A stretch of 57,688 nt of DNA, the filler included, from Deltaproteobacteria bacterium (lineage in GTDB: Bacteria > CG2-30-53-67): assembly GCA_013151235.1 (NCBI GenBank). It is 3 parts of 3 records of this genome, joined end to end, with 100 filler letters (N's around TTAATTAATTAA, not from the genome) between each part and the next. Parts side by side here need not be neighbours in the genome. Positions count along the whole stretch, not along the records: positions 1 to 20,374 come from JAADIO010000029.1; 2 more parts are not named here. One strand, written 5' to 3'. Below the pieces are notes generated by a model. That model was not told the origin of the DNA, searched no databases, and saw only the letters and a list, made by a program, of their open reading frames with translations. Position 1 is the stretch's first letter. Every line of letters starts with the position of its first letter. This document shows positions 2,561 through 10,399 of the stretch, piece by piece. Made by a program: the position numbers and the translations under genes.

Positions 2561-5143
2561 TCATTGTTTCCTGCATCGGATTCTCACAATTAGAACAAAC
2601 ACCGGAAGCAACAGAAACAGGCCATCCACCCCGTTCCCCGGCCGACCGGACAAGGCGCAACCACCACCGCCTCCACCACTTCCAGCGGAAGCCCCGGAGG
2701 ATCCGGATGAATTTGAGAGGGGCTCTCCGACAAACCCAGGGTCCACGATCACACCGTTCGCCGTCTTATCGGCATCTCCCGTCCCGCCGTCGGTCAGAGT
2801 GAAACTCAGGCGGTTACCCGATACGACGGCACTCAGCTCCGTAAAACCGTTCCCCGTATCATACTTCCAGTATTCCACATCTGCAGGAAAGCTTGCCTGA
2901 CTGTAGATCGTGACCGTAACGCTTCCTCCGACAGCAACGTTTTCTATCTTATATTGAAATCCGCCGTATGAAAAGTCCGCCGGGAGACTTTCCGACAGAT
3001 AAGCGGAAGGACTGCTGATAAATACGGCTTCGGCAATCCGGACAGCCGAAGCGGAGACCTTCAGCGCAATCTTTCCCTTCTTCCCTTCCAATGTCACCAG
3101 CGTAGCGTCCAGACGATCCGGAACCCCATCACCATCAATGTCATTGCTCAATTCCTGGCTGTCCGGAATCCCGTCATTGTCCGAATCGGTATCCAACGCA
3201 TCGATGATCCCGTCTCCATCCGAATCCAGAGGAGAAGATATATTGCCGATCTCCTGACTGTCCGGGATTCCGTCCTGGTCGCTGTCGGTCAGGTTGGGAT
3301 TCAGAGCGATGGATGTCTCTTCAATGTTCGTCAATCCGTCGCCATCCTGATCACCGTTCGGACCGTCCGTATCATTCATATCAACATAGTTGGGGGCGCC
3401 GTCGTTGTCGGAGTCGCCTGTACCCTCTACGGCATCCGGTTTCCCGTCGTTGTCGGAATCAAGATCAAGGGCGTCGATCGTGCCGTCACCGTCAGAATCG
3501 ATGGGAGTCTTCCCTTTGTCAAATTCCGCCTGATCGGAAATCCCGTCTCCGTCGGAATCGGCAAGGTTCGGGTTCAACCCATATGTCACCTCGGTCGAAT
3601 TGCTGATTCCGTCGCCATCCTGATCACCGTTCGGACCGTCCGTATCATTCATATCAACATAGTTGGGGGCGCCGTCGTTGTCAGAGTCGCCTATACCTTC
3701 CACGGCATCCGGTTTTCCGTCGTTGTCGGAGTCGAGATCAAGGACGTCGATCGTGCCGTCACCGTCGGAATCGATAGGACGGACCCCGTTCCCCCATTCA
3801 ACAAAATCCGATATTCCGTCGCCGTCCGAATCGGCAAGGTTCGGATCCAATCCATACTTAAGCTCCTGACTGTTGGAGAGTCCGTCATGATCCGGATCCG
3901 CCTGTGAATCATAAACGGTGATCATCTTGCTGACGGTTGTTTCCCCTCCATTATTATCGGTAACCCGGAGAGAGACCGCAAAACCGCCCGCCGCTGAAAA
4001 GGTGTGCGAAGGATTCGCCGTATAGGCGGAGGAATGATCACCGAAATCCCAGACATAACCGGTGACCTGCCCGTCACTGTCCGATGCGTTCGCCGTAAAT
4101 GCCACAGTCAACGGGGCAACACCGGTCGTTTTGTCCGCGGTCATGGTCACGGAGGGCGGAACATTCGGATGATCGGAGACAACGATCGACTGTGAGGCGG
4201 TCGCGGTGGCCCCCTGGTTATCCGTTATCGTGAGCGTCGCCGTATAGGTGCCGGCCACACGATAGACATGCGTGGGCGCAGAACCTGAACCGCTGCTTCC
4301 GTCGCCAAAATTCCAGGCATAGGAAGCAATCGTTCCGTCCGTATCCGTCCCCAGGCCGTAGAACCGGACGGAGAGAGACACCTGTCCCTGCGTCGGCGAG
4401 GCGCTTACCGAGGCGGTAGGCGGCGAATTGCCCGAAGACGCCGCCTGCTCTACGACAACCTGGACCGTATCCGTACTGCTCGCCTTCCCGTCATTGACGG
4501 TCAGCTTGAAAACCAGCGTCTGACCGGAAAGGGCCGAAGTAGCCGAAAAGAACGGTGTGGCCGCAGTGCTGCCCAACAGGTTCACCGCCCCGCCGGAGAC
4601 TTGTACCCACGAATAAGTCAGGTTATCTCCGTCCGGATCGGAGCTCCCGCTCCCATCCAGATTGACCTGGATACTCCCTCCCGTTAATTGCGATTGTGTG
4701 ACCGTTTGATCTGCTCCTGCCGAAGCCGTAGGGGCGTGATTTACACTCTCGGTGGCAGTCACTTCATTGGAATAGCCGCTCTCATTCCCGCTTGTATCGT
4801 AGGATGTAACAGCAATATGGTATGTAACGCCGGCGGTCAGGCCGCTCAGTGTAAGCTCCGGATTCGCCGGGTCGGAAAGGGATGCAACCGGGACCGAGAT
4901 CGGAGAATTCCCCTGGGAAAGCCCTGTACCGTTGTAGGGAGCGCCGGACCCGTCCGTATCATAATAAATCCTGTACCCGGCAAGATCGCTGCAGGCAGTT
5001 CCATCGGCATTGGTCGTCGTCTGATCCCAGGCAACGGTCACGGAAGCCTCGGCAAACCCTGGTCGGAGAGAAACCACCAGAAAACAAAGGATCAAAAAGA
5101 TCAAGCTTTTACTTCGGATTGTCTCCATTCGTAAAGCTTTCAT
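2561..5143 (-). CDS. Large surface protein: FN3, PKD/K319L-like domains, thrombospondin type-3-like Ca-binding repeats, choice-of-anchor U-like domain and a Gly-rich Cys C-terminal sorting tail (JDVT-CTERM-like)
   Basis: Signal peptide; SVTVAWD..LAGYRIYY..YHIAVTSYD..ES.YSNEV; PKD motifs YAWNFGDG and YVWDFGD; DSDGDG repeats; LTDGGTGDAD..NGVIVDPG; tail GGGGGGC + TM helix + RIRCRKQ. Confidence 0.88.
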   Translation of the reverse strand: MKALRMETIRSKSLIFLILCFLVVSLRPGFAEASVTVAWDQTTTNADGTACSDLAGYRIYYDTDGSGAPYNGTGLSQGNSPISVPVASLSDPANPELTLSGLTAGVTYHIAVTSYDTSGNESGYSNEVTATESVNHAPTASAGADQTVTQSQLTGGSIQVNLDGSGSSDPDGDNLTYSWVQVSGGAVNLLGSTAATPFFSATSALSGQTLVFKLTVNDGKASSTDTVQVVVEQAASSGNSPPTASVSASPTQGQVSLSVRFYGLGTDTDGTIASYAWNFGDGSSGSGSAPTHVYRVAGTYTATLTITDNQGATATASQSIVVSDHPNVPPSVTMTADKTTGVAPLTVAFTANASDSDGQVTGYVWDFGDHSSAYTANPSHTFSAAGGFAVSLRVTDNNGGETTVSKMITVYDSQADPDHDGLSNSQELKYGLDPNLADSDGDGISDFVEWGNGVRPIDSDGDGTIDVLDLDSDNDGKPDAVEGIGDSDNDGAPNYVDMNDTDGPNGDQDGDGISNSTEVTYGLNPNLADSDGDGISDQAEFDKGKTPIDSDGDGTIDALDLDSDNDGKPDAVEGTGDSDNDGAPNYVDMNDTDGPNGDQDGDGLTNIEETSIALNPNLTDSDQDGIPDSQEIGNISSPLDSDGDGIIDALDTDSDNDGIPDSQELSNDIDGDGVPDRLDATLVTLEGKKGKIALKVSASAVRIAEAVFISSPSAYLSESLPADFSYGGFQYKIENVAVGGSVTVTIYSQASFPADVEYWKYDTGNGFTELSAVVSGNRLSFTLTDGGTGDADKTANGVIVDPGFVGEPLSNSSGSSGASAGSGGGGGGCALSGRPGNGVDGLFLLLPVFVLIVRIRCRKQ
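3107..3898 (-). repeat. About three tandem 273-bp (91-aa) intragenic repeats of Asp-rich TSP3-like units
   Basis: 75-nt exact identity between 3335-3409 and 3608-3682 (offset 273); protein unit D.D.DG.SN..E...L.PNL.DSD.DGI.D occurs three times. Confidence 0.9.
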
Positions 5144-5159
5144 AAATCTACCTCACCAC

Positions 5160-5194
5160 AAAAAAAGGCCGCCAGGAAAACTTCCTCTGGCGAC
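5160..5194 (-). terminator. Intrinsic terminator (expression platform) of the proximal riboswitch
   Basis: Minus strand GUCGCCAG-AGGAAGUUUUC-CUGGCGGC followed by U7; its 5' arm is the aptamer P1 3' strand. Confidence 0.85.
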
Positions 5195-5333
5195 CCGGCC
5201 GACATAGAAACAGAAAAGGGGAATCGGGAAATAGGAATTGGAAAAACAAGGGCAACCCCATACCCATCACCGTTTCATTAGTCCCGAGGCTCTGCGTCCC
5301 GCGGTTTCCCGCGGTTTGCTCTGAGCAAAGGAA
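5182..5333 (-). ncRNA. GEMM-I riboswitch, A20 variant (predicted 3',3'-cGAMP sensing), with a long P3 insertion
   Basis: Minus strand UUCCUUUG-CUCAG-A-GCAAA-CCGCGG-GAAA-CCGCGG-GACGCAGAGCCUCGGGACUAA...UAUGUCGGCCGGGUCGC-CAGAGGAA; 8-bp P1, GAAA tetraloop, CUAA/UAUG receptor; base equivalent to Vc2 G20 (5320) is A. Confidence 0.9.
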
Positions 5334-5373
5334 AACTATTTTATATCAGTATGTTACACCTCATTTCCTCCAC

Positions 5374-5409
5374 AAAAAAACCCAGCATACCGAAAAAGGC
5401 ATCCTGGGT
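5374..5409 (-). terminator. Intrinsic terminator of the distal riboswitch
   Basis: Minus strand ACCCAG-G-AUGCC-UUUUUC-GGUAU-G-CUGGG followed by U7. Confidence 0.8.
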
Positions 5410-5443
5410 AAAAGTCCTCGGGCATCCTGCCGCCCACTATTTT

Positions 5444-5534
5444 ACCACTTCGGGAGGTCATGACCGACCTTAATGATAAGGCCTCACAACTCTGCGATCC
5501 CGGCCTTCCGACCGGAACTGCCTTTATCGGTGGT
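5444..5534 (-). ncRNA. Divergent GEMM-I riboswitch, G20 type (predicted c-di-GMP sensing)
   Basis: Minus strand ACCACCG-AUAAA-G-GCA-GUUCCGGUC-GGAA-GGCCGGGAU-CGCA-GAGUUGUGA-GGCCUUA-UCAU-UAAGGUC-GG-UCAUGAC-CUC-CCG-AA-GUGGU; P1/P2(GNRA)/P3 architecture with G20 (5522) and C92 retained. Confidence 0.7.
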
Positions 5535-5544
5535 TCTATTTTAA

Positions 5545-5573
5545 ACATTACCCTCACTCGTCAATAATGTCAA
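5545..5573 (-). promoter_or_regulatory. Putative sigma70 promoter directly upstream of the distal riboswitch
   Basis: TTGACA-N17-TAATGT; predicted start about 5538, just before P1. Confidence 0.5.
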
Positions 5574-5606
5574 TGTCAATTTTTGACACCTTGATCGTGG
5601 AGGTAC

Positions 5607-5623
5607 TGCAAGGCAAATGCCAA
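5607..5623 (-). promoter_or_regulatory. sigma54 (-24/-12) promoter
   Basis: TTGGCATTTGCCTTGCA: GG-N10-GC with TGGCA and TTGC. Confidence 0.75.
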
Positions 5624-5760
5624 TAACACCACGCAAAGCTCAGGTTCTCAAAACCCCTTTGTTTCCCATATGTTGTGTAATTATAAAAACGTTCATACAA
5701 CATCTGGCGTTAAATGTCAACAAATAATGCATGTTTTTTTGTACAATTCGCCTGAATAGC

Positions 5761-5891: not shown

Positions 5892-6797
5892 ATGAGGCCT
5901 GAACAACCCATCCCCGTCGAAGGCTATGACCAACGGCAGGAGCATCTTCACTCCCGCTGTCTGCATATCGGCCGGCTTATCGCAATCCTGGTTCTAGCGT
6001 CGTTACTCTCTTACGGCTTCTTCGTTGAGCCGCACAGGTTACGTACGGTCACAGTAACCATCCGGGACCGGGATATGGCCGATGTGCTTGGAGGTCTACG
6101 GATCATCCAGATGAGTGATCTTCACCTCGGCAGCAATTCAACGATCACCCCGAAAGAGATATTCGCCATCCTGCAGAAAATCCGGCCGGACCTGATCCTC
6201 CTTACAGGGGACCTGGTGGACTGGAGCAGAAGCGACAAGGACTATGATGAGGTCTTCGACTTTTTATCTCACCTCCATGCACCACTTGGGGTCTTTGCCG
6301 TAATGGGGGATGCCGACTATTCCAGTACCCGCCGCTCCTGTGAATACTGTCACCGGAAGGAAAGCGGTCTGCCCGTCGAAGACCATGACGTAAGGTTTCT
6401 GCGGAACAAGCTATGGCCTCTGAAAGGAAGGAATGGAAGACCATTCATGCTGGCCGGCGTCGGATGGAAGGCGGACAACGCGCGAAAGAAGAAGTTACTC
6501 CAATCAATCCCTCCGAAAATCCCGGCGATTATGCTGGCCCACTCCTCGGTTATTTTCCGAAAAATCCCGGCATCAAGAAATATTTTGGTTCTTTCCGGCG
6601 ACACACACGGGGGACAGATCCGTCTTCCAAGCTTTTTGTGGAAGATACTGGCCCTCAAACCGGATCCGGAGCACATGTACGGTCTCTATCATGAAGGTCG
6701 CAAGATCCTGTACGTGAGCAGTGGAGTGGGAACATCGGAGATTCCGTTCCGCCTCGGCATGCCGCCGGAGATCGTTCTGTTTCAGTTCATCCCGTGA
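5892..6797 (+). CDS. Membrane-anchored metallophosphoesterase (YkuE/YaeI-like) with atypical motifs
   Basis: N-terminal TM; SDLH, TGDL, GDADY, LAH, SGDTHGGQ, LYVSSGVG...PFRLG.PPEI. Confidence 0.85.
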   Translation: MRPEQPIPVEGYDQRQEHLHSRCLHIGRLIAILVLASLLSYGFFVEPHRLRTVTVTIRDRDMADVLGGLRIIQMSDLHLGSNSTITPKEIFAILQKIRPDLILLTGDLVDWSRSDKDYDEVFDFLSHLHAPLGVFAVMGDADYSSTRRSCEYCHRKESGLPVEDHDVRFLRNKLWPLKGRNGRPFMLAGVGWKADNARKKKLLQSIPPKIPAIMLAHSSVIFRKIPASRNILVLSGDTHGGQIRLPSFLWKILALKPDPEHMYGLYHEGRKILYVSSGVGTSEIPFRLGMPPEIVLFQFIP

Positions 6798-7451: not shown

Positions 7452-8321
7452 ATGATAAACGCCCTTTCCGTCGACGTGGAAGAATATTTTCAGGTATCCG
7501 CCTTTGACCAGGTGATCGACCGGCGAAGATGGCCAGCACTGGAAAGCCGCCTTGCCAACCCCCTCCACAGGATCCTGGACCTCTTCGATCGCTATAAAAC
7601 AAATGCTACCTTCTTTGTCCTGGGTTGGATCGCAGAGCGTCACCCGGCGCTGATCGGCGAGATCCATGCACGAGGCCACGAAATCGCCTCCCACGGATAT
7701 GAGCACCGGCTGATCTATGAAAGCTCTCCGAATCACTTCGCGGGAGACCTTGAAAGATCCCGGAAGACTCTGGAGGATATCACCGGACATGGTATTCTCG
7801 GATACCGTGCCCCCAGCTATTCCATTACACGCGAAAACATGTGGGCCTTTGATGCCCTGATCGAACAGGGGTTCGTATATGATTCCAGTATCTTTCCGAT
7901 CCATCACGATCGTTACGGCATATCCGGCAGTCCCCGTTTTCCCTATACGATCAGGCGTAAAAACGGCCGGATCCTGGAGTTTCCCCTCTCGACGGCACGC
8001 ATTATGGGCGGCAATATCCCGGTCGCGGGAGGGGGCTACCTCCGTCTCTTCCCTTTCCCACTTATTCGTTGGGGGCTGCGACACATCAACCGCAAGGAAA
8101 AAGAACCTTTCATCCTCTATTTTCATCCATGGGAGATCGACCCGGAACAACCACGGCAGGCGGTCAATGCTGTAACCCGTTTCCGCCACTATCACAACCT
8201 CAACCGGATGGAAGGAAAGATCGAGCATCTCCTGCAGGAATTCACCTTTACTTCCGTCTCCGGTTTACTAAAAGTGCTCTTCTCCCACGACTATACAGAG
8301 ACAACGGGGACCGCGACATGA
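7452..8321 (+). CDS. Polysaccharide deacetylase, PEP-CTERM/XrtA-locus subfamily (DUF3473)
   Basis: NALSVDVEEYFQV, ATFFVLGW, GHEIASHGY.H, GYRAPSYSI, GGGYLR, YFHPWEIDPEQPR. Confidence 0.92.
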   Translation: MINALSVDVEEYFQVSAFDQVIDRRRWPALESRLANPLHRILDLFDRYKTNATFFVLGWIAERHPALIGEIHARGHEIASHGYEHRLIYESSPNHFAGDLERSRKTLEDITGHGILGYRAPSYSITRENMWAFDALIEQGFVYDSSIFPIHHDRYGISGSPRFPYTIRRKNGRILEFPLSTARIMGGNIPVAGGGYLRLFPFPLIRWGLRHINRKEKEPFILYFHPWEIDPEQPRQAVNAVTRFRHYHNLNRMEGKIEHLLQEFTFTSVSGLLKVLFSHDYTETTGTAT

Positions 8322-10399
8322 TGGTAACAGCGCTGTTGATCCTTTGCATGCTGATCACTTCCGTCACGGCTTTGCTGCTGCTCACGCGTGAACGGAAAAG
8401 TATTGCATTGAAAACGCTGGGGCAAACGGCCGGGTTGCATGCATTCATTATCCTCTGGCTGTTCCTCTCCTGGAACGGGTTCCTCCCCTTTCTCACTCTT
8501 TTGCCGCTGCGGATTGTCCTCTCCCTTTTCTCGCTGACGCTCTATACCTCGGTCCTCTTTTCTTTCCATCATGTCCGTTTTGAACGACCGCTCCTTCCCG
8601 GGATTCAACGAATCGCATTACCTGTATCGGCTTTTCTGGCCGCACTCTTTTTTCTCCTCTCCTTCCATCCGATACTCCTGGCCGAAAAGACACTGCTTAA
8701 CGGCCGGATCGCACTCCGTTTCGGGCCGGCAGGAACCCTCTTCGGCATCGCAACCATCCTCTGTCAGTTGATCATTCTCTTTCAGATGGAGCAAACCTTT
8801 CGCTCCGCCTCAACAAATCAACGGATCCGGCTCAAATTTCTCATCCTGGGAATTGCCTGCGGCAGTCTGTATCTCCTTTTTCTGGCCGGCAGGATTCTCC
8901 TGTATCATTCCATCGCAATTGATTATCTGGTCGCCGGCGCCGTCGTCGCTTCGGCCTGCTGGTTGATGATCCTTTTTGCAATGGTTCGACATCGTTTATT
9001 GCAGGCGGATCTCTTTATCTCCCGACAGGTCGTTTTTACTTCCGTTGCGGCCTTCGGAATCGGTCTTTATCTCTTCGTTGCAGGAATGATTGGATTCTTC
9101 ATCCGTTCCCGGCGGAGTCAATGGGACCTGCTGATCACGATTATCTTCGTCGCCCTGACCATTATTTTTTTCGCCATGCTCCTTTACTCCCCCGTCCTGC
9201 AACGACGGATCAAACATTTCATCCACACCCACTTCTACCGTTACCAGTATGACTACCGAGAGGAATGGAAGGAATTCACCCGGAAGATCATTGCCGCCCG
9301 GGACCTTCCCCAACTCCTCGAAGGGGTCATCGAAATGATCTCCGAAACCCTTTGGATCAACCAGCTCTCCCTCTGGCTCTTTAATGAAAAGACGGGGATT
9401 CTGACATTTACCACCAGCCGCAACCTTCCCAGGAAGGCCCAATTCGTCCGCAGGGAATCCCCGCTGGTGGCCTCCCTGCTCCGTACCGGCACCCCCTTTA
9501 CCACACAATCGTCACGAGGAAGGAAGACCGCAGAAGCAATGAAGGATTTCTTCCAGCGATACCAGATCTCGATGATCGTTCCGCTCAAACTGGGCAAACG
9601 GCTGGTCGGGATGATCACATTAGGCCCCACGATGAAAGGAACCGACTATACGGATGAGGACGGGGAGCTCCTGACCATGATCGCGGATCAGGCCGCCGGC
9701 GCCATTATCAGCGCCCAGTTAATCGAGGAGATCGGCCGGACCAAGGAAGAAGAGTCCTTCAACAAGATCTCCTCCTTCCTGGTTCATGATCTGAAAAACC
9801 TGGTCTCTTCCCTGTCGCTGGCCCTGCAGAATGCCAAGCGGAACATTGCCAATCCCGCTTTCCAGATGGACCTCCTCTCAACATTGGTGAATACCATCGA
9901 GAAAATGCAGACCCTCATCGAGAAACTCTCCACACTTCCGAAGGAACTGGTGATCCACAAGGAACCGGTCAACATCAACCGGTTGATTCGGGAAGCCATA
10001 GAGAGTTCCCGTGTAGACAACCTGCGGAATGTGGAACTGCACACGGAACTGAATGAACTCCCCCTGATCCAGGCGGATGGCGAATATGTGAAAAAGGTCC
10101 TGGTCAATCTGATTCTGAACGCCGTCCAGGCACTGCCGAACGGCAGGGGAAGGATCGAGATCTCCTCTTACGACAGCGACGGCTATGTCCGAGCCGAGGT
10201 CCTGGACGATGGAGAAGGAATGTCGGACGAGTTTATCACCCAGGAACTCTTCAAGCCCTATCGCTCGACAAAGAAGAAGGGATTGGGAATCGGTCTTTTC
10301 CAATGCAAGACCATTATGGAAGCCCACGGCGGAAAGATTGAAGTCCACAGCCTGCCGCAACGGGGCTCTCAATTTATCCTGAGTTTTCCCATTGCATAG
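8318..10399 (+). CDS. prsK: PEP-CTERM system sensor histidine kinase PrsK
   Basis: ATG overlaps the upstream stop (ATGA); multi-TM N-terminus; HFYRYQYDYREEW; GAF region; SFLVHDLKN H-box; NPAFQ.D.L.T; GLGIGLFQC. Confidence 0.88.
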   Translation: MMVTALLILCMLITSVTALLLLTRERKSIALKTLGQTAGLHAFIILWLFLSWNGFLPFLTLLPLRIVLSLFSLTLYTSVLFSFHHVRFERPLLPGIQRIALPVSAFLAALFFLLSFHPILLAEKTLLNGRIALRFGPAGTLFGIATILCQLIILFQMEQTFRSASTNQRIRLKFLILGIACGSLYLLFLAGRILLYHSIAIDYLVAGAVVASACWLMILFAMVRHRLLQADLFISRQVVFTSVAAFGIGLYLFVAGMIGFFIRSRRSQWDLLITIIFVALTIIFFAMLLYSPVLQRRIKHFIHTHFYRYQYDYREEWKEFTRKIIAARDLPQLLEGVIEMISETLWINQLSLWLFNEKTGILTFTTSRNLPRKAQFVRRESPLVASLLRTGTPFTTQSSRGRKTAEAMKDFFQRYQISMIVPLKLGKRLVGMITLGPTMKGTDYTDEDGELLTMIADQAAGAIISAQLIEEIGRTKEEESFNKISSFLVHDLKNLVSSLSLALQNAKRNIANPAFQMDLLSTLVNTIEKMQTLIEKLSTLPKELVIHKEPVNINRLIREAIESSRVDNLRNVELHTELNELPLIQADGEYVKKVLVNLILNAVQALPNGRGRIEISSYDSDGYVRAEVLDDGEGMSDEFITQELFKPYRSTKKKGLGIGLFQCKTIMEAHGGKIEVHSLPQRGSQFILSFPIA

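Follow-up and report, generated by a model that had tools for sequence, protein, structure and literature searches.

A leader with two GEMM-I-type aptamers as a plausible two-signal gate before a secreted-protein operon

The leader and its proximal switch

The DNA analysed here, a stretch of 57,688 nucleotides from Deltaproteobacteria bacterium (assembly GCA_013151235.1) that we call the window, carries on its minus strand, at 5588..5141, a leader about 400 nucleotides (nt) long. In this leader two aptamers of the GEMM-I riboswitch fold stand in series, each with its own terminator, a hairpin followed by a U7 tract. This order had been noticed in an earlier reading of the DNA (the sequence-only reading), which did not state the strand, and it is confirmed here. 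The leader sits in a divergent intergenic region, between a phosphoesterase gene on the plus strand (5892..6797) and the minus-strand gene of an 860-residue secreted protein (5143..2561). We refer to the promoter-near aptamer as distal and to the gene-near one as proximal.

Window positions 1-20374 are contig C44 of genome G000, a 2.62-Mb assembly of 73 contigs that is 99% complete; positions 20375-57688 are N's or other contigs, and the window is not one continuous piece of DNA. The host's GTDB phylum is small, with 14 species genomes, nine in family f1 (the window's genome included) and five in its sister family f2; one record of the phylum bears the label of an uncultured Nitrospirota metagenome-assembled genome. 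Leader DNA was matched in all nine f1 genomes, and many of these matches take in the distal element together with its terminator and the first (5') half of the proximal aptamer.

The proximal element (5182..5333, minus strand) is a bona fide GEMM-I riboswitch. The search with Rfam models that the sequence-only reading had proposed places c-di-GMP-I (RF01051) at 5330..5186 with 58 bits (gathering threshold 35; E 8.5e-09 over the entire window; full model, 1-87), and this is the sole Rfam element above threshold in the whole window. Stem P1 is formed by UUCCUUUG (5333-5326) with CAGAGGAA (5189-5182); the aptamer has a GAAA tetraloop and a 62-nt insertion in the loop of P1b. Model position 11, the equivalent of G20 in the Vc2 aptamer, is an A at 5320, so that G20, which reads the G-alpha base of c-di-GMP, is lacking. 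The equivalents of A47 (in the CGC-A junction) and C92 (5190) are both retained, which fits the nucleotide pattern of GEMM-Ib, and the four other GEMM-I matches of the window's genome carry G at the position-20 equivalent. This A is not a peculiarity of the window. It is found in 18 of the 19 loci with such an aptamer, across five genera, and it co-varies with the sequences CUCAGA in junction J1/2 and CGCAGAG in J2/3; the single G-type, at locus L012, has AAAAG and CGCAAAG instead.

The proximal intrinsic terminator (5195..5160, minus strand, then U7) was assigned with RNAfold. Its 5' arm (5195-5187) takes in the last nucleotides of P1b, the C92-containing junction and the 3' strand of P1, so that aptamer and terminator draw on the same nucleotides. 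Folded alone, the aptamer part forms P1, P1a and P1b. In the full-length module the terminator forms, while P1 and the base of P1b are broken, and this is the case in all 11 leaders folded (the window and the 10 other foldable homologous leaders). Since the aptamer's 3' side doubles as the 5' arm of the terminator, ligand should prevent termination, and the proximal polarity should be ON, as the sequence-only reading had also proposed.

The distal aptamer and its terminator

The distal element (5442..5536, minus strand) is a diverged, lineage-specific member of the GEMM-I fold, neither a chance look-alike nor a member of any curated family. The sequence-only reading had taken it for GEMM-I; the fold stands, whereas a standard GEMM-I it is not. 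Its scores lie below the gathering scores of the GEMM-I clan families (RF01051, RF03167), with homologues at 21.9 and 22.6 bits, so far under threshold that a database scan would not call the element. It consists of P1 (5534-5528 with 5452-5444), P1a (5521-5494) with a GGAA tetraloop and P1b (5490-5457) with a GG bulge, joined in a three-way junction. The pocket equivalents are G at 5522 for G20, 5493 for A47 and 5453 for C92, the last assigned by alignment alone, since the P1b-P1 junction (J3/1) holds an extra variable nucleotide. The G at 5522, like the A at 5320 of the proximal aptamer, had been read correctly before, and both are upheld by the Rfam model alignments. P1 and J1/2 have exactly the letters seen in the ordinary GEMM-I copies of these genomes.

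Further support comes from homologues. In an alignment of 11 distinct copies, from which we built our own covariance model (R1), 96.9% of the cells are paired and eight pairs carry changes on both sides; none of 500 shuffles was as good on four of five measures. RNAalifold independently yields P1, P1a with its GNRA loop and P1b from the distal alignment. With 16 distinct sequences 97.0% of the cells are paired, with seven double-change pairs, while slid controls pair at 29-50%; the observed percentage paired and covariation score were attained by none of 500 shuffles, and the count of double-change pairs by one. Most of the compensatory changes are in P1a; P1 and P1b have one apiece. Kinship among the copies inflates these covariation tests, although the compensatory changes themselves are direct. 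Invariant in all 16 sequences are the G at 5522, the A at 5493 that follows CGC, the C at 5453 beside P1, an AA bulge in P1 and the GNRA loop, the listed loops of P1a being GGAA, GAAA, GUGA or GACA.

R1 gives 105.6 bits to the window's copy and 92-112 bits at 12 places in seven of the nine f1 genomes, against only 23-47 bits for the ordinary GEMM-I copies of those genomes. A gapped-pattern scan added six loci on metagenome contigs (86-107 bits), which brings the distal loci to 18. The copy of G005 is interrupted by a contig end and G001 has no distal element; R1 has no match in the five f2 genomes. A 15-mer pattern scan of 596 Gb of genome contigs returned mostly chance matches, and among the matches listed three of 80 loci fit R1 strongly, all from the same family. 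R1 found no match at E <= 1e-8 in a sample of 151 genomes from a different phylum, chosen around the genome of locus L072; with strict filters and only 27 candidates scored per genome, this is a weak negative.

The distal terminator (5374..5409, minus strand) is a hairpin of -16.6 kcal/mol, with a 12-bp stem holding one mismatch, a UUUUUC loop and a U7 tract. It does not overlap the distal aptamer, and the minimum-energy fold of the whole module holds both. The sequence-only reading had tentatively derived OFF polarity from a pairing of the P1 3' strand with the terminator base. Such a pairing, which we call AT1, does exist in the linker (5407..5446, minus strand), where a hairpin at 5435-5420 is flanked by GGUAAAA (5446-5440) and UUUUACC (5413-5407). 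Its duplex energy in the window is -6.9 kcal/mol, a value equalled by 89 of 500 shuffles. Across loci AT1 ranges from -3.3 to -10.8 kcal/mol, with 17-490 of 500 shuffles as good, so we rejected it as the sole anti-terminator and retain it only within a larger alternative fold. The proposed polarity thus keeps a basis, although another one than the pairing first put forward.

That basis is a second, long-range complementarity (AT2). The aptamer segment 5532-5519, that is the 5' strand of P1, J1/2 and the first pairs of P1a, is complementary to the apex of the terminator at 5401-5388 (end of the 5' arm, loop and start of the 3' arm) over 12-14 bp. In the window AT2 has -18.1 kcal/mol against -9.5 +/- 2.6 in shuffles, four of 500 attaining it. 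It is present in all 12 genome loci, at -14.5 to -21.9 kcal/mol against -7 to -10 in shuffles (attained by 0-11 of 500), and in the six metagenome loci it ranges from -12.1 (L196) to -25.2 kcal/mol. As a control, the same aptamer segment was paired with the proximal terminator, and the result was at shuffle level (-8.0 to -12.2 kcal/mol; 48-364 of 500 shuffles as good). AT2 is also maintained by compensation: at L011 an AAU in J1/2 pairs with AUU in the loop, and at L192 CCAU in P1 is matched by a G-to-A change in the 3' arm.

When AT2 is enforced, the resulting fold (state B) contains AT1 and keeps P1a and P1b, without P1 and without the terminator. State B lies within 4.2 kcal/mol of the fold with aptamer plus terminator (state A) in all 12 genome loci. 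We also folded transcripts that stop where the complementary stretch ends, with the 3' arm still incomplete; 13 of 18 have state B as their minimum-energy fold. P1 is kept, with 6-7 pairs, at L006, L007 and L015, and neither P1 nor the apex pairing forms at L008; the window's own cut transcript is not in state B either, its cut having already taken in the whole terminator. According to these folds, the distal module bears the signature of a bistable OFF switch that rests on AT2 rather than on AT1.

The distal type stands alone directly before an open reading frame (ORF) at L027 (G006:C126), L192 and L196, and G001 has solitary A-types (L013, L018) and no R1 score above 25 bits. As both modules also occur singly, they act independently. 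Between the two switches of the window lie a Shine-Dalgarno (SD)-like GGAGG (5371-5367) and a start codon followed at once by a stop, GUG UAA (5359-5354), read from the sequence at 5354..5371 of the minus strand. Such a start-stop (AUG UAA or AUG UAG; GUG UAA in the window) is found at the equivalent place in nine of the 15 tandem spacers analysed, the others being L007, L008, L009, L011, L012, L015, L191 and L193; the spacer ORFs of L010 and L194 have two codons and that of L017 has four. It may be left over from the start of a gene since lost, or it may serve to load ribosomes. The likeness of the GUGG..GAGG stretches after both U-tracts, pointed out in the sequence-only reading, is there, and the two stretches are the two SD regions.

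At L027 the layout is different. There (2742-1290, minus strand) a distal-type switch heads the gene of a 311-residue fn3-like secreted protein, and an A-type follows about 1 kb downstream, after the gene. This layout may be the ancestral one, the tandem arising by loss of the intervening gene. At L195, on a metagenome contig, the distal terminator appears decayed, its U-tract seemingly lost.

Candidate ligands and competing readings

Taken together, the two modules make the leader a plausible tandem gate of the NOT-A-AND-B type, built, on the folding models, from two versions of one aptamer fold. Without distal ligand, the P1 5' strand, J1/2 and the first P1a pairs would bind the terminator apex, and the P1 3' strand would bind the 5' flank of the same terminator; this would block the distal terminator, and the polymerase would read on. 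Binding of the distal ligand would close P1 and the junction, release the terminator and stop transcription. In the proximal module, ligand would hold the 3' side of the aptamer, which is the 5' arm of the terminator, and termination would not occur. A full-length mRNA would then need the distal ligand to be absent and the proximal ligand to be present.

As to the ligands, our preferred reading is a two-signal gate of two independent terminator riboswitches, a distal OFF switch for cyclic di-GMP (c-di-GMP) and a proximal ON switch for 3',3'-cGAMP (a cyclic GMP-AMP), before an operon of secreted proteins with fn3, PKD and TSP3 domains, and we give it about an even chance. The secreted surface proteins would then probably be made only when one second messenger is low and another high. 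G20, A47 and C92 read c-di-GMP in the type structure (PMC5888326), and A at position 20 is the change linked to the sensing of c-AMP-GMP, with natural A-variants described as ranging from selective to bispecific (PMC9481103, PMC6140456). The most likely proximal ligand is thus predicted to be 3',3'-cGAMP, made by a GacA-like Hypr GGDEF enzyme of the genome. For the distal aptamer c-di-GMP is the leading guess and the most likely ligand, because the G/A/C pocket triad is kept. The sequence-only reading had gone from G20 to c-di-GMP directly; the triad is in keeping with it, while the step is weaker than was stated, given how far the variant has diverged and how poorly L012 fits.

Absence of a cGAMP synthase would have counted against the proximal ligand, and the genome search that the sequence-only reading had suggested finds a candidate. 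One of the 13 GGDEF domains of the genome has the Hypr signature, in a GAF+GGDEF protein of 478 residues (G000:C11:92636-94069). Hypr enzymes have Ser or Thr in place of Asp at GacA position 348 and GGDEF, and residue 304 is Tyr in GacA and Arg in ordinary cyclases, as described in PMC6456294. In the candidate, position 348 is Ser, the cross-dimer position 304 is Phe, and the motif reads GGDEF, not GGEEF (GHLVGSQ ... RYGGDEF). Among solved structures its best match is 6D9M, the Hypr GGDEF domain of Geobacter metallireducens GacA (PMC6456294), at 163 bits (E 1.3e-46), with other cyclases at 120 bits or less. Pfam finds only GAF and GGDEF in it; residues 1-130 match no family, and the name given to 6D9M by its depositors mentions a receiver and a GAF domain. 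Orthologues with 72-92% identity are present in eight of the nine f1 genomes, and all eight keep F/S/GGDEF, against R/D/GGEEF in two paralogue controls; none of the five f2 genomes has one. On this sequence evidence, the genome encodes a GacA-like Hypr GGDEF, a predicted cGAMP synthase, and its conservation supports cGAMP as the proximal ligand. Another GGDEF domain, at G000:C64:6097-6573 (+), is atypical: the guanine-reading residue is Asn (GHFAGNQ), the cross-dimer residue is Tyr (NYRY) and the motif is GGEEF, a signature neither canonical nor Hypr.

Several observations speak against our preferred reading. The best Rfam match of the distal aptamer (5531..5448) reaches only 17.3 bits, with RF03167 (c-di-GMP-I-GGC; gathering score 59; E 0.3). 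Its P1a internal loop is AG/UC where the consensus has AAA/GAC, its lower P1b is a continuous, near-invariant 7-bp helix followed by the GG bulge, without the bulged A and without a receptor of the 11-nt type, and J3/1 has one extra, variable nucleotide; with these departures the distal pocket may not be canonical. The proximal A-type departs from the consensus as well, in J1/2 and J2/3. Locus L012 couples the distal type with a G20 ON switch, and if both read c-di-GMP they would oppose each other; this pairing and the divergence of the variant leave room for another distal ligand. In the window, aptamer plus terminator is favoured by 1.8 kcal/mol without ligand (state A -62.9, state B -61.1 kcal/mol), and read-through therefore depends on kinetics. 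No Hypr orthologue was found in G002, a genome 89% complete. Finally, the related genomes are non-independent samples.

It is possible, though we consider it unlikely, that architecture and polarity are as described and that the distal variant is a new GEMM-I subclass sensing a third ligand, such as c-di-AMP, a linear dinucleotide like pGpG or another nucleotide signal. None of the Rfam GEMM-I models comes close to the variant, its non-consensus junction and loop nucleotides are invariant, and single-nucleotide changes in the pocket are known to retune the GEMM-I fold (PMC9481103, PMC6140456). Moreover, the distal type precedes an A20 switch at 14 loci and the G20 ON switch at L012, which is self-consistent only if its ligand differs from both. 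However, the G20/A47/C92 equivalents are present and fixed throughout the 16 sequences, P1 and J1/2 do not differ from those of ordinary GEMM-I copies, and the G20 partner is confined to one locus. If a third ligand were nevertheless read, the leader would be a natural gate weighing cGAMP against a third nucleotide signal, and a new specificity would be added to a well-studied fold.

We find it rather improbable that both aptamers answer to one messenger, or that the proximal one is bispecific, in which case OFF followed by ON would act as a band-pass filter or a dose-shaping device. This idea draws on natural A20 aptamers that can bind both ligands (PMC6140456), on a Desulfobacca A-variant that gained affinity for cGAMP with only a slight loss for c-di-GMP (PMC9481103), and on L012, where a canonical G20 ON switch follows the distal type. 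Against it, the A is fixed in 18 of 19 loci over five genera, other junction changes co-vary with it, and it co-occurs with a conserved Hypr GGDEF; all this speaks for a second signal of its own.

Least probable of all, and in our view quite doubtful, is a distal element that no longer binds ligand and serves as a constitutive or protein- or temperature-modulated attenuator, or as the source of a short terminated RNA, the relic of an upstream gene unit that has been lost: the vestigial SD and start-stop of the nine spacers, the whole gene between the switches at L027, the apparent decay of the distal terminator at L195 and the ligand-free minimum-energy fold of the window would suit it, but the junction nucleotides are unpaired and yet invariant, stems and anti-terminator are kept through compensations across genera, which indicates selection on a switching RNA, and at L027, L192 and L196 the variant is the sole leader element of its gene.

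Surroundings of the leader and known systems

The leader is probably transcribed from a sigma-70 promoter at 5545..5573 (minus strand), with TTGACA at -35 (5573-5568), a 17-nt spacer and TAATGT at -10 (5550-5545), which would place the transcription start near 5538. TTGACA-N17/18-TAnnnT is found at a constant distance from the aptamer in homologous leaders. Among public sequencing runs, none of RNA is listed as containing 4700-5700, and a single DNA run contains a small part of it. A simple consensus scan of the minus strand called neither this promoter nor either terminator, the promoter being missed because its -10 box matches at only 3/6 positions; promoter and terminators were assigned from RNAfold and conservation instead. 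Abutting the -35 box is a palindrome, TGTCAA-N3-TTGACA (5574..5588, minus strand), which was read from the sequence and is visible by eye in most of the 18 homologous leaders and clearly absent from L012 and L027. Only two strict sites occur in the whole genome, the other one at G000:C21:38545. The palindrome is probably an operator for a transcription factor, a candidate third input to the promoter. An ORF of 67 residues (5557..5354) that overlaps the distal switch was dismissed, as its start lies upstream of the predicted transcription start and RNA structure accounts for the region.

The gene behind the leader (2561..5154 with its SD, minus strand) has the SD GAGG at 5154-5151 and its ATG at 5143. 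Pfam finds PKD_4 (E 5.8e-40), TSP3_bac and fn3 in the 860-residue product. Two more ORFs for secreted proteins follow on the same strand (2538-2140 and 2073-250). The same N-terminal domain heads the gene behind the switch in six of the 13 homologous loci for which a downstream ORF was found (16 searched); elsewhere the downstream gene encodes a protein rich in CxxCH (L195) or another secreted or membrane protein. The L195 ORF (L195:2-283, minus strand) has CxxCH motifs, is cytochrome c-like and is reminiscent of the Geobacter cGAMP regulon. The C-terminus of the 860-residue protein, Gly-rich with a Cys, a hydrophobic stretch and a basic tail, resembles a sorting signal. On the plus strand, 7452-10399 encodes a polysaccharide deacetylase with DUF3473 and a GAF histidine kinase with multiple membrane spans, which we take to resemble a PEP-CTERM/exopolysaccharide regulatory locus.

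Elsewhere in the genome, at G000:C27:67627-67706 (+) (L160, 1501-1580), lies another GEMM-I-like aptamer, with relatives in G003, G005, G007, G008 and G004. It has a very short P1a with a UGCG loop in place of GNRA. Its pocket is canonical, and its sigma-70 promoter is strong (TTGACA-N18-TATAAT). Its platform is of the OFF type, the 3' arm of the terminator mimicking the 3' strand of P1. The genome search with RF01051 missed it, and R1 gives it 46 bits.

Alternative surface lifestyles of Geobacter are believed to be under the control of c-di-GMP and 3',3'-cGAMP, and we know of no RNA device that reads one against the other. The leader described here is a compact candidate for a device reading two messengers outside Geobacter, with a matching Hypr GGDEF synthase in the same lineage. 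Even if our guess at the ligands is wrong, a conserved GEMM-I variant missed by database models and a long-range anti-terminator, in which the 5' side of the aptamer pairs with the terminator apex, would keep their value. The modules are seen singly, in tandem and separated by a gene, which makes them useful for understanding how tandem riboswitch gates assemble.

No earlier description of an OFF/ON pair of GEMM-I variants was found in the literature covered, which did not extend to the two 2015 discovery papers. In the 2022 catalogue of tandem riboswitches, pairs that join an adenosylcobalamin (AdoCbl) switch to a c-di-GMP-I switch or to one for c-AMP-GMP figure as NOT-A-AND-B gates, 347 c-di-GMP-I doublets are treated as same-ligand, and Table 2 has no pair of c-di-GMP-I with c-AMP-GMP (PMC9481103). 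A 2025 survey lumps all c-di-GMP families together. The proximal switch belongs to a class already known; the distal switch adds to that class a new variant with an unusual anti-terminator, and their combination is a plausible natural gate.

Among known systems, the GEMM-Ib switches of Geobacter, including the tandem before omcAHG (GSU2885), share with the leader the GEMM-I fold, A20, ON regulation by terminator disruption, control of extracellular or surface proteins, a GacA Hypr GGDEF in the genome and two switches per leader (PMC6456294). The tandems of G. sulfurreducens, as that source presents them, are two GEMM-Ib units of the same polarity, whereas here the upstream unit is another variant, with G20 and OFF polarity. 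The A-type of this lineage also has its own J1/2 (CUCAGA) and J2/3 (AGAG), and its host belongs to a separate small GTDB phylum. Vc2 of Vibrio cholerae (RF01051), the type example, likewise has three stems, with P1a capped by a GNRA tetraloop and P1b holding a purine bulge. Its pocket triad is at 20/47/92 (PMC5888326), positions for which the distal element has equivalents by alignment, and it differs from the proximal aptamer by the A20 found here and from the distal one by the altered P1a internal loop, the altered P1b and the longer J3/1. In Rfam, c-di-GMP-I-GGC (RF03167) and c-di-GMP-I-UAU are GEMM-I derivatives split off for their differing pocket or junction nucleotides. The former is the best weak match of the distal element, which keeps A rather than G at the position-47 equivalent and, at 17.3 of 59 bits, is not a member. 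Similar in logic is the tandem of Desulfobacca acetoxidans, in which an AdoCbl OFF switch with its own terminator precedes a c-di-GMP-I or c-AMP-GMP ON switch, also giving NOT A AND B (PMC9481103). In the leader described here, by contrast, one aptamer fold, in two versions, serves for both inputs.

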